This document shows, piece after piece, positions 5,023 through 6,991 of a stretch of DNA of 64,000 nt. How positions within the stretch are numbered: position 1 is the stretch's first letter; each line of letters begins with the position of its first letter. The notes beneath the pieces are model-generated. The model was not told the DNA's origin. It saw nothing but the letters and a program-made list of their open reading frames with translations, and made no database searches. The DNA is taken from NCBI RefSeq assembly GCF_988242995.1, contig NZ_OZ547043.1, one strand, 5' to 3'. Position numbers and translations under genes: made by a program.

Positions 5023-5924
5023 CTTCACCATTTATTCAACAAATTGCTGATAACCGGGTATGTCAGGTACTCACCTGTCTTCCTGAAAAATTTGTGGTTG
5101 ATTTCGCAAACGGTATCGATGTTGCACAGGAGCATATCCGCACGGCCGGAGAGCGCACGTTCTTCCGGCGGTTAAAAGAGGGGCTGAGCGGCGAAGGTGC
5201 TGCACGGCAGAATGCCATCAATGCTTCGCTTGCACAGGGCGTTGAGGCATCCCTGCGCTGGCTGACGGAGCTGACAACGTCACTTGCCACCACAAACTAC
5301 GCGATTACCCGGGTAAACGACAGGGTCAGTTCACTGGTCAGTGATACTGCCAGGCTGGCGCATTATTCCGCAGATACGCGGGAGCAGTTACTCACCCTGG
5401 CCGATCAGGTTCACCAGAAACTGAATCATCTTGAAGAAAAACTCCACCGTGTTGACCAGGTTCAGCGGGCACAGTTACATCTTGAGCAGATATTCTCATG
5501 GTGGAGTGCCGGGCGATATGCGTCCTTTTCCCCTGCCGGACGCTGCTATGTGGCGCTTGAAGAGCTTCGATGGGGCGCGTTTGGTGATGTGATACGTCAG
5601 GGCGAAACAGGGCAGGTTAACCAGCTACTGGATATTCTCAGACATAAAGCATTAACGCAGATGGCACAGGAGAGTGGCGGTAGTGCAACCGTGCGTCTGA
5701 ACACTCTGGACTGGCTTGGTGGTCAGGTCCGGGAGCAGGCAGATAACGAGTGGCATGACGCGATTAACTGGCTGGGGGACTGGTGCAGTGAAGAGCGGCA
5801 TCCGGTGATCTGGTCAACCACGCAGGCTGCAGAACACTTACCGGTTCGTATGCCCCGTCTCTGCTCTGCAGAGCGCCTCTCTGAAAGTATGGTTGATGAA
5901 ATATTTCAGAAGGGGGCGGCATGA
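5019..5924 (+). CDS. dynamin-partner protein (301 aa), YjcZ-like
   Basis: GTG start overlaps stop of upstream dynamin gene (GTGA at 5019..5022); size and position mirror the crfC-yjcZ pair. Confidence 0.6.
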   Translation: MTSPFIQQIADNRVCQVLTCLPEKFVVDFANGIDVAQEHIRTAGERTFFRRLKEGLSGEGAARQNAINASLAQGVEASLRWLTELTTSLATTNYAITRVNDRVSSLVSDTARLAHYSADTREQLLTLADQVHQKLNHLEEKLHRVDQVQRAQLHLEQIFSWWSAGRYASFSPAGRCYVALEELRWGAFGDVIRQGETGQVNQLLDILRHKALTQMAQESGGSATVRLNTLDWLGGQVREQADNEWHDAINWLGDWCSEERHPVIWSTTQAAEHLPVRMPRLCSAERLSESMVDEIFQKGAA

Positions 5925-6991
5925 GTACAGAAATGAAAACGGGGCTGGTGCTGTCCGGTGGCGGGGCGGTGGGCGCTTATCAGGCAGGTGTGGTTAAGGC
6001 TCTGGCAGAGTGCGGCGCACAGATCAGTATGGTCTCAGGAGTCAGTATCGGGGCTCTCAATGGTGCCATTATCGCGGCCTCTCCCGATCTGTCAGAAGCC
6101 GCCGCACGCCTGGAGGCGCTCTGGAAGTATCTGGGAGAGAATCAGGTTCTGTCGGTAAACCGATCGGTTTACTTTTCATTGCTGAAAAAATTGTTCCAGG
6201 CAATGAACCTCTGCCAGATCCCCGGACGTGCAGGAGTACTGCTTACGACGCTTCTTCGCCATATATCGACAATCAACGGGTTCGAAAATCCGATGGCTCA
6301 GCCGTTGTTGTCAGATGGACCCCTGACAGGGCTGATGGATCATTATCTTGATACTGATGCTCTGTCAGACGGGCTACCGTTGTATGTGTCGCTGTACCCC
6401 ACGGAAGGGGGAGTGCAGGATATTATCGACTGCATTCGTGCTGAACTGGGTGCCGGAACTACAAAAAACTCCGTTTTTCAGCATATCCAGAGCCTGCCCC
6501 GCGGGCAGCAGAAAGAAGCCTTACTGGCGTCAGCAGCACTGCCCCTGCTGTTCCGTCCCCGTGAGGTACAGGGAAAAATGTACGGTGATGGTGGTATGGG
6601 CGGATGGCAAAATATGCAGGGGAATACCCCTGTGACGCCACTGGTGGATGCCGGATGCAATATGGTGATTGTGTCGCATCTGAGTGACGGTTCTTTATGG
6701 GATCGCCGGGCTTTTCCGGACACCACAATCCTTGAAATCCGTCCCCGGAAAAAGCTGAAACAAACAGGGGAAGAAGGCAAAAGTGGCGGTCTGCTCAGTT
6801 TTACATCGGCACATACCGACACCTGGCGTCAGCAGGGCTATGAAGACACGATGCTGACGATGGAGCATATCCGGAAACCGCTGGCAGCACGTCAGGCACT
6901 GACCCGGTCAGAGGCGGTATTGCAGAAAAGCCTGGATATAACGGAAGAGGCAGATTTGGCACTGAGAAACGCGATGGCCCGGATTAAATAA
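5921..6991 (+). CDS. patatin-like phospholipase (356 aa)
   Basis: ATG overlaps upstream stop (ATGA 5921..5924); Gly-rich oxyanion motif SGGGAVG (5957..5974), GxSxG lipase motif GVSIG with Ser codon at 6044..6046, catalytic Asp in GDGG at 6587..6589. Confidence 0.8.
   Translation: MSTEMKTGLVLSGGGAVGAYQAGVVKALAECGAQISMVSGVSIGALNGAIIAASPDLSEAAARLEALWKYLGENQVLSVNRSVYFSLLKKLFQAMNLCQIPGRAGVLLTTLLRHISTINGFENPMAQPLLSDGPLTGLMDHYLDTDALSDGLPLYVSLYPTEGGVQDIIDCIRAELGAGTTKNSVFQHIQSLPRGQQKEALLASAALPLLFRPREVQGKMYGDGGMGGWQNMQGNTPVTPLVDAGCNMVIVSHLSDGSLWDRRAFPDTTILEIRPRKKLKQTGEEGKSGGLLSFTSAHTDTWRQQGYEDTMLTMEHIRKPLAARQALTRSEAVLQKSLDITEEADLALRNAMARIK

Follow-up and report, generated by a model that had tools for sequence, protein, structure and literature searches.

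A dynamin–RdcB–patatin cassette from an Escherichia coli genomic island as a candidate defence system

The locus

We analysed a stretch of 64,000 nucleotides (nt) from contig NZ_OZ547043.1 of the NCBI RefSeq assembly GCF_988242995.1 (hereafter, the window), and in it a patatin-like gene together with the two genes directly upstream, which encode a dynamin-family GTPase and a protein of the YjcZ/RdcB family. The three genes form an operon that recurs in many bacterial lineages, and we describe it here as a widespread, uncharacterised candidate defence cassette, distinct both from the cyclic-oligonucleotide-based antiphage signalling systems (CBASS) and from the dynamin-based system Eleos. The genes and the main features of the patatin are listed below (aa, amino acids; pLDDT, predicted local distance difference test).

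2626–5022, plus strand: gene 1, dynamin-family GTPase, 798 aa, a paralogue of CrfC/RdcA (YjdA); Dynamin_N, E = 5e-17
5019–5924, plus strand: gene 2, YjcZ/RdcB-family protein, 301 aa, GTG start; Pfam YjcZ (PF13990) over the full length, E = 4.7e-70
5921–6991, plus strand: gene 3, patatin-like lipid acyl hydrolase, 356 aa; ATG at 5921, TAA at 6989–6991
5957–5974, plus strand: Gly-rich oxyanion loop GGGAVG, residues 13–18 of the patatin, with V17 in place of K/R
6038–6052, plus strand: nucleophile elbow GVSIG, residues 40–44, with Ser42, located by alignment with PlpD and 90 relatives
6158–6310, plus strand: variable helical insert, residues about 80–130, modelled with pLDDT 53–62
6581–6595, plus strand: catalytic Asp motif YGDGG, residues 221–225, with Asp223, followed by the family-specific signature GGWxxxQGNTP
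6806–6985, plus strand: single long C-terminal alpha-helix, residues 296–355, pLDDT 87–97

The stop codon of the dynamin gene overlaps the start of the RdcB-like gene by 4 nt, and an overlap of the same length joins the RdcB-like stop to the patatin ATG. The three genes are translationally coupled.

Identity and catalytic residues of the patatin

The Pfam Patatin domain (PF01734) covers residues 9–239 of the gene 3 product, corresponding to model positions 1–188 of 191, with E = 8.4e-27, far beyond chance. The protein is 100% identical to WP_000102624.1 of E. coli S88, named "patatin-like phospholipase family protein" in RefSeq, and the surrounding DNA (2400–7700) is also 100% identical to that strain, with two single-nucleotide polymorphisms in the first 19.7 kb of the window. 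Taken on its own, the gene is ordinary and already annotated.

A preliminary description of this gene, made from the letters of the DNA, had claimed that the Ser–Asp dyad is intact, with GVSIG as the GxSxG motif and YGDGG as the DGG motif. Both motifs are where it had placed them, and the catalytic residues were assigned correctly: in a phmmer search against solved structures the GTSMG and DGG positions of PlpD (5fqu, E = 2.5e-12) align with Ser42 and Asp223, the other matches being VipD, ExoU and a CBASS lipase. In an alignment of 90 relatives from many genera, residues G18, G40, S42, G44, D223 and G224 are invariant, and G13–G15 are glycines in 89 of the 90 rows, the lone exception being an N-terminally truncated one. 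Position 41 is valine in the S88 allele and alanine in 83 of the 90 relatives. Within E. coli and E. albertii the ratio of nonsynonymous to synonymous substitution rates (dN/dS) of the patatin gene is 0.20–0.25, that is, the gene is under purifying selection. Given this ratio and the retained catalytic residues, we conclude that the gene is maintained rather than decaying, and the protein is probably active as a lipid acyl hydrolase.

The same description had proposed a cytoplasmic enzyme, and this prediction holds. Neither a signal peptide nor a membrane segment was found in the patatin, whose first beta-strand and Gly-rich loop begin at residue 7; the hydrophobicity peak (maximum 19-residue Kyte–Doolittle mean of 1.69) falls on the buried nucleophile elbow. 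The patatin-type lipase is thus predicted to be cytoplasmic.

The claim of a variant oxyanion motif stood in one part and failed in the other. The basic residue is indeed missing from the loop, its place being taken by V17, but the loop does not set the family apart, as the canonical K or R is found at this position in 74 of the 90 relatives (82%). The full count is K in 66, R in 8, I in 10, V in 4, and L and M in one each, so that 16 of the 90 are aliphatic, and almost all of these come from Enterobacterales or Vibrio. An aliphatic residue 17 is always paired with M, I or V, and never with Q, at position 226 beside the catalytic Asp, and the clade that carries it retains all catalytic residues over 50–60% sequence divergence. 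Since K/R predominates and the aliphatic variants are nearly confined to Enterobacterales and Vibrio, the ancestor of the family presumably had GGGA[K/R]G, and one clade swapped the basic residue. Judging from the alignment, the K-to-V change is probably a substitution that this clade tolerates, of minor importance, and need not mean that the enzyme is inactive. In mammals, ATGL/PNPLA2 (GCGFLG) works as an enzyme though it has no basic residue at this position of the motif.

Spread and co-inheritance of the cassette

The preliminary description had mentioned dynamin genes upstream of the patatin; the link proved to be much stronger than could be seen in the sequence of the locus, as the three genes form a conserved cassette. 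When 100,044 species, each represented by a single genome, were scanned, 397 loci with a relative of the patatin were obtained, and the figures below come from the best 80 of these; partner genes were sought among the open reading frames (ORFs) of each locus by iterative searches with hidden Markov models. An RdcB gene lies directly upstream of the patatin in 66 of the 80 species-level loci. Where an RdcB-linked locus comprised enough upstream DNA (n = 64), a dynamin gene was observed upstream of RdcB, in the same order and on the same strand, in all loci except one (n = 63). This sole exception is a locus of Acinetobacter (L034:7828-9069) in which the dynamin slot is occupied by a 413-aa helical protein without a GTPase domain.

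Among Proteobacteria, the cassette was found in Enterobacterales, Pseudomonas, Acinetobacter, Moraxella, Burkholderiales, Chromatiales and Methylococcales; beyond them, it occurs in heterocystous cyanobacteria, Desulfocapsa, Pontiellaceae, Neomarinimicrobiota and one Synergistaceae genome. Standalone patatins, having no partner genes, come from eleven Synergistaceae and one Neomegalonema. The distance matrices of the three cassette proteins correlate with r = 0.86–0.90 (Mantel p = 0.001, 49 loci); thus, the cassette moves and diverges as a unit. All of the 120 closest RdcB matches listed by a profile search are of the cassette type.

Of 5426 complete E. coli genomes, 2498 (about 46%) carry the patatin, with up to four copies in each, and these carriers include O157:H7 and extra-intestinal pathogenic lineages. 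No homologue of the patatin was detected among 50,697 phage records.

Several variants of the cassette were observed in passing. Another Acinetobacter locus (L032:4930-9042) has two dynamin-like ORFs in tandem, and in the Synergistaceae cassette (L054:1290-6356) the dynamin ORF reaches 1688 aa owing to extra N-terminal sequence. Patatin alleles truncated to 238–262 aa account for several hundred E. coli entries, and such alleles persist beside intact partner genes.

The dynamin and the RdcB-like protein

The GTPase motifs of the dynamin are intact: the P-loop at G75–S82 with K81, T102, D235–G238 (DTPG) and N298–D301 (NKFD). The equivalents of K82 and T103, two residues known from tests to be important in RdcA (PMC6510439), are kept. 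Identity to RdcA of E. coli K-12 is 46% over residues 33–454; the C-terminal half is helical and can barely be aligned with that of RdcA. The NCBIfam CrfC model scores the protein at 558 bits, below the cut-off of 1146 set for the equivalog, and with the 46% identity being restricted to the GTPase domain we rejected the identification of gene 1 as the CrfC/RdcA equivalog; RefSeq labels it "dynamin family protein". The gene 2 product is 31% identical to K-12 RdcB. Its PF13990 match places it in the YjcZ family, which is a statement of family membership and not of equal function, and its RefSeq label is "diguanylate cyclase regulator RdcB family". The dN/dS ratio of the RdcB-like gene, calculated against the E. 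albertii and O157 copies, is 0.06–0.07. Neither the dynamin nor the RdcB-like protein has a membrane-spanning segment.

K-12 has homologues of genes 1 and 2 in an identical arrangement, likewise overlapping by 4 nt, but this operon lacks a third gene and acts on DgcE, which is encoded elsewhere. According to genetic data, RdcA binds to RdcB as well as to the MASE1 domain of DgcE, and it is in the nucleotide-free state that RdcA activates DgcE (PMC6510439). A GTPase and an accessory protein docking onto an effector (PMC6510439) serve as the template for the mechanism proposed below, with the difference that the cassette is mobile and brings its own effector, the patatin; the relation between the two pairs is paralogous.

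The cassette proteins are diverse enough in sequence to encompass the core RdcA and RdcB of K-12 (L096:3136-6239). K-12 RdcA is 43% identical to the cassette dynamin of Budvicia, and by identity to the S88 dynamin it ranks 28th of 50. On a neighbour-joining tree, K-12 RdcB, on a long branch, is placed beside the proteobacterial cassette RdcBs, inside the split that separates them from the cassettes of cyanobacteria, Methylococcales and Moraxella. This placement is suggestive of core RdcA/RdcB being a patatin-less offshoot of the cassette family. A broader proposal is that a CrfC/RdcA-type dynamin together with a YjcZ/RdcB protein is a portable GTP-dependent or membrane-sensing switch with a patatin as its ancestral and widespread output, the cassette then being a new kind of immune or suicide system (a GTPase-licensed phospholipase, distinct from CBASS and Eleos) and RdcA/RdcB–DgcE its domesticated, effector-less descendant; we put this forward tentatively, as a possibility on the doubtful side.

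The same homology could be read the other way, with the cassette as an island-borne paralogue of the RdcA/RdcB input into cyclic di-GMP signalling, modulating DgcE or another diguanylate cyclase and biofilm formation, and the patatin as an accessory lipid-signalling enzyme. The RefSeq name of gene 2, the similarity to RdcA in the GTPase domain and to RdcB, and the position of the K-12 proteins within cassette diversity all agree with such a role. We regard it nevertheless as very improbable, given the sub-threshold CrfC score, the divergent C-terminal half of the dynamin, the occurrence of the cassette in cyanobacteria, Desulfocapsa, Pontiellaceae and other lineages, and the recurrent neighbour families of the cassette, among which no GGDEF gene was found.

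Divergence within the operon is uneven. At the nucleotide level the RdcB-like gene shares 97–98% identity with the copies of E. albertii (L002) and O157 (L098), against 91–93% for the neighbouring patatin and as little as 84–86% for some stretches in the C-terminal half of the dynamin gene. The pattern suggests either recombination or a higher rate of evolution in the two outer genes.

Predicted structures and the C-terminal helix

The AlphaFold model of the patatin, built with the 90-sequence alignment, has pLDDT 84.5 and a predicted template modelling score of 0.80. All 42 best Foldseek matches of the model belong to the patatin or cPLA2 family, and the 33 best have E ≤ 1e-3. The closest solved fold is that of PlpD (E = 8e-11), followed by CapV, CapE and the VipD–Rab5 complex. 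The helical insert at residues about 80–130 is variable and modelled with low confidence, and it may be a lid or an element contacting the membrane or a partner.

The long C-terminal helix starts with a conserved motif, W302/Q305-G-Y-x-D309. In all 63 scorable cassette-linked patatins the tail beyond the GYxD motif comprises 43–68 aa (median 51), and in all 12 standalone patatins it comprises 14–25 aa. The two ranges are fully separate, and the long tail goes with the presence of the partner genes. Of all parts of the patatin, the helix is therefore the most plausible docking element for the dynamin and RdcB.

The model of the RdcB-like protein (pLDDT 73) is all-alpha, with long N-terminal helices of low confidence and a confident C-terminal domain (130–300). 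No solved structure resembling it was found: there was no sequence match, and the best Foldseek E in the fold search was 1.0, so that the predicted fold offered no clue to function.

Genomic neighbourhoods

In S88 the cassette is located in a CP4-44-like island beside yeeA, sbmC and dacD, and the cargo of this island includes a YeeP-type GTPase, DUF932, antirestriction, yeeS, yeeT and cbeA genes and a frameshifted cbtA. The cassettes of Pectobacterium and O157:H7 are also on CP4-type islands. Those of Klebsiella and Enterobacter are carried by IncR and conjugative plasmids, with ccdAB and a gene for a RES-domain protein nearby. On the Klebsiella IncR plasmid NZ_CP127520.1 (L097:6000-10014) the dynamin gene is shortened (675 aa, named "dGTPase") and has an IS1 element directly at its 5' end, and the RdcB and patatin genes beside it are intact. 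The patatin allele of this plasmid, of 59.7% identity, recurs on many Klebsiella and Enterobacter plasmids.

Elsewhere the cassette is accompanied by defence genes. In Vibrio vulnificus a WYL regulator lies directly upstream and the genes brxL and pglZ of a bacteriophage exclusion (BREX) system lie downstream, within an element that has a relaxase and a resolvase. A metagenome contig has McrBC upstream of the cassette and a pair of WYL/WCX and PDDEXK_4 genes downstream. In Enterobacter asburiae a WYL gene is directly upstream, with an integrase, Mrr and PDDEXK_4, and the contigs carrying P0101 likewise have a WYL/WCX regulator directly upstream of the cassette. A further metagenome contig (L089:561-10988) contains a BrxR-type WYL regulator between the cassette and a back-to-back Eleos-like dynamin pair. 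WYL-family genes recur most often among the neighbours: about 15 of 65 species loci have one in the roughly 2.3 kb that precede the dynamin gene. Other neighbours match the PADLOC models for Druantia DruE, a GajB-like helicase, a type I methylase and a PLD-helicase. Recurrent co-localisation with defence genes on mobile elements, the generic mark of a defence system, is thus observed in many unrelated genomes.

The Eleos-like pair in L089 consists of an 820-aa protein that has a TerB domain and a 569-aa protein that has DLP_helical; a single regulator may serve two distinct dynamin-based systems at this locus.

Several of these neighbourhoods would also be expected of a module of island addiction or competition, in which the dynamin and RdcB would restrain a toxic patatin and the cassette would serve to stabilise a CP4-like element or to exclude its rivals. 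The cassette indeed stands amid toxin–antitoxin (cbeA/cbtA), antirestriction, RadC and DUF932 genes of CP4-type islands, some plasmid copies lie beside ccdAB and the RES-domain gene, and a transcriptional response to the presence of a prophage, with induction of the operon in Kapi1 lysogens, is on record (PMC12922286). Such a role seems to us improbable. A length of about 4.4 kb and the need for a GTPase are atypical of addiction modules, and the neighbourhoods with WYL/BrxR, BREX and McrBC indicate defence islands. Moreover, truncated patatin alleles persist with intact partners, and the coexistence of an IS1-truncated dynamin with an intact patatin on plasmids speaks against the dynamin as an essential antidote.

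Comparison with known systems

CapV and CapE are among the closest known parallels to the patatin. They share its cytoplasmic location, its approximate size, its Ser–Asp dyad and its setting on defence islands, they rank with its best matches by structure (9jeh, 9ion, 9iop; Foldseek E about 1e-7), and they are kept off until a partner signals, as is proposed for the patatin below. As CBASS effectors they degrade membranes (PMC13069673). The operon differs from CBASS in having no gene for a CD-NTase or cGAS-like enzyme, the partners being the dynamin and the YjcZ protein; the activator would be a pair of proteins around a GTPase instead of a cyclic nucleotide, and the patatin has a QGNTP signature of its own and the long C-terminal helix. 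We rejected its identification as a CBASS effector, the NCBIfam CBASS_lipase score being 18.9 against a cut-off of 200 and the operon comprising no cyclase.

Eleos (the validated system also called "Dynamins", LeoA with LeoBC) resembles the cassette in being a system of dynamin-family GTPases on defence islands. It was noted in E. coli islands before its role in defence was shown (10.1101/2022.05.11.491447). Eleos has two consecutive dynamin-like proteins, however, and neither a lipase nor a YjcZ protein. The operon in the window was rejected as an Eleos system, having a single dynamin with a weak match to LeoBC (2.7e-5, 21.5 bits) and none to LeoA, and a YjcZ gene in the second position.

Among solved proteins PlpD is the best match of the patatin by sequence as well as by structure, with the E values given above. 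PlpD, a type Vd secreted patatin of Pseudomonas aeruginosa, is fused to a secretion domain and a POTRA domain. RssA is the best match by NCBIfam name, covering the N-terminal 50 residues with a score of 32.9 against a cut-off of 272. Neither PlpD nor RssA is linked to a dynamin. The preliminary description had singled out the ExoU, CapE and RssA families for comparison; the patatin is structurally similar to CapE, and it scores far below the cut-off for RssA. More generally, we rejected curated membership of the cassette in CBASS, Eleos, RssA, VpdC and CrfC, the PADLOC and NCBIfam matches being weak or below threshold.

The patatin fold and the dyad are shared with VipD of Legionella and ExoU of Pseudomonas as well. 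Binding of the host GTPase Rab5 switches VipD on, and we know of no other precedent for the control of a patatin by a GTPase. VipD has been solved in complex with this GTPase (4kyi). Both proteins differ from the patatin of the cassette in being secreted, in having large extra domains and in acting on eukaryotic hosts, and the identity in structural alignments is 15–17%.

These similarities raise the question of whether the patatin, as part of a pathogenicity island, could be secreted and serve virulence as a phospholipase that attacks host membranes, like ExoU and VipD. The island of an extra-intestinal pathogenic strain would be a fitting place for such an enzyme, the sequence and structural likeness to VipD and ExoU points the same way, and the genes have been listed among "membrane modeling" loci of islands (PMC13182975). 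On the other hand, there is no signal peptide in the protein and no chaperone or secretion-system gene in the operon; at 356 aa, the protein is far shorter than the solved chains of ExoU and VipD (551–711 aa) and lacks their large C-terminal localisation domains; and the same cassette is found in free-living environmental bacteria and cyanobacteria. Because of the missing secretion signal and the occurrence in environmental lineages we rejected this explanation, the probability of which we consider minimal.

Proposed function of the cassette

With moderate confidence, we propose that the cassette is a candidate system of defence against phages or other mobile elements, in which a GTPase pair licenses a membrane-degrading lipase. 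By analogy with RdcA/RdcB–DgcE and VipD–Rab5, the dynamin and RdcB would form a sensor-switch that keeps the patatin inactive or unlocalised. A cue associated with infection, such as a perturbation of the membrane or a fall in GTP (the latter as proposed for RdcA), would then release or recruit the patatin via its C-terminal helix, and the patatin would hydrolyse the phospholipids of the inner membrane, so that the cell would be dead or arrested before the release of phage, as with CapV and CapE. This abortive attack on the cell's own membrane, which the preliminary description had also implied, is a hypothesis drawn from the genomic association with regulators, defence genes and mobile elements.

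Several observations weigh against this proposal. The PADLOC matches of the operon are weak, with the CBASS phospholipase model reaching 1e-4 on the N-terminus of the patatin, and PADLOC has no model of the cassette. In S88 itself the locus has no WYL regulator and no known defence system adjacent to it, the neighbours being CP4-type backbone, and the association with defence islands is qualitative, not being scored against the genomic background. The contact between the patatin and its partners is one that we infer. Our literature searches retrieved no report testing the three-gene dynamin–YjcZ–patatin cassette. RdcA and RdcB, the only characterised relatives of genes 1 and 2, act in cyclic di-GMP signalling and not in defence. 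Finally, DynA of Bacillus subtilis protects by delaying lysis and not by suicide (PMC8844932; PMC12922286); hence, the effect of the cassette could be protective instead of abortive.

This last point leads to another alternative, non-suicidal maintenance of the membrane. Here the dynamin would remodel or seal the inner membrane in the manner of DynA, and the patatin would clear damaged acyl chains or make curvature-inducing lysolipids, the result being stress tolerance or delayed lysis. Three proteins without membrane-spanning segments could well act peripherally, the variable helical insert of the patatin could be a membrane-binding lid, and a cassette that is kept intact by almost every second E. 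coli genome, at up to four copies, would be borne more easily if it is not toxic. Still, the patchy spread on mobile elements and the regulation by WYL/BrxR proteins typify defence cargo and not housekeeping repair, K-12 RdcA is described as soluble and cytoplasmic, unlike membrane-associated dynamins (PMC6510439), and the closest solved cytoplasmic patatins of bacteria are the membrane-degrading effectors of CBASS (PMC13069673). We consider maintenance of the membrane rather unlikely.

Published reports and implications

Two islands of E. coli MP1 have been described as carrying homologous "dynamin, RdcB-family, phospholipase" operons, which lie near EcoKI and Druantia and were proposed as a putative defence system (PMC12922286, BMC Genomics 2026); the authors found no known link between phospholipases and bacterial dynamins. 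The cassette is not mentioned in the main texts of DefensePredictor (PMC13092281) and of the domain-centric screen (PMC13069673). The preprint of Millman et al. on the dynamin system contains mutational data on GTP binding and no worked-out mechanism (10.1101/2022.05.11.491447). "Mutations" in crfC, rssA and yeeP reported elsewhere (PMC7696260) were judged to be probable mis-mapping of reads among paralogous island copies, and we did not use them.

The cassette ties a dynamin GTPase to an enzyme that is easily assayed. Given this and the wide spread of the cassette, clones and point mutants could show whether the GTPase licenses a membrane-degrading lipase. The cassette would also provide an evolutionary context for the biofilm regulators RdcA and RdcB of E. 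coli.

The misleading database names of cassette members could be corrected. Such names (P0017, P0032, P0054, P0199, P0204) include "ferredoxin reductase" for truncated patatins and "chemotaxis protein" or "phage host-nuclease inhibitor protein Gam" for RdcB-like proteins; "dGTPase" and "RdcB family regulator" are other names in use.

Putative control elements and adjacent genes

Three further features flank the coding part of the operon.

2515–2544, plus strand: promoter-like site TTAATA-18-TATCAT, about 80–110 nt upstream of the dynamin start
2527–2537 and 2545–2555, plus strand: two exact 11-nt direct repeats ATCGATCGTTA, 18 nt apart, straddling the promoter-like -10
7011–7037, plus strand: terminator-like hairpin CACCGCCTGTGGTGGTG followed by a T-run, 20 nt past the patatin stop

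Several GATC (Dam) sites are situated within about 45 nt of the ATCGATCGTTA repeats. The repeat is nearly intact in E. albertii and absent in other genera, and its count is not significant, as two matches with at most one mismatch appeared in 34 of 100 shuffles. The region of the promoter-like site and the repeats (2515–2555), 70–110 nt before the dynamin start, may be the promoter and operator of the operon or, alternatively, a methylation-sensitive promoter. The CACCGCCTGTGGTGGTG hairpin probably marks the end of the operon, and the predicted transcription unit spans about 2515–7037.

Two small ORFs just downstream (7127–7615 and 7826–8236) have N-terminal hydrophobic segments resembling signal peptides; the first of them has no PADLOC or NCBIfam match. 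Neither ORF is present at the equivalent position in E. albertii and O157:H7, and thus they are probably island cargo unrelated to the operon.

The Plesiomonas cassette (L092:1-5487) adjoins an integrase, a helix-turn-helix gene and a large ORF with a faint match to family-B DNA polymerases, and the whole may be a self-replicating integrative element.

The differences between the window and the S88 RefSeq sequence within the first 19.7 kb are confined to positions 7615 and 11336. The A at 7615 ends the ORF of the window there, at a place where S88 is annotated with a 227-aa protein (7127–7810), and the change at 11336 falls in the frameshifted cbtA. This toxin gene (11146–11519), together with the intact antitoxin gene cbeA (10689–11057), makes up a decayed type IV toxin–antitoxin pair.

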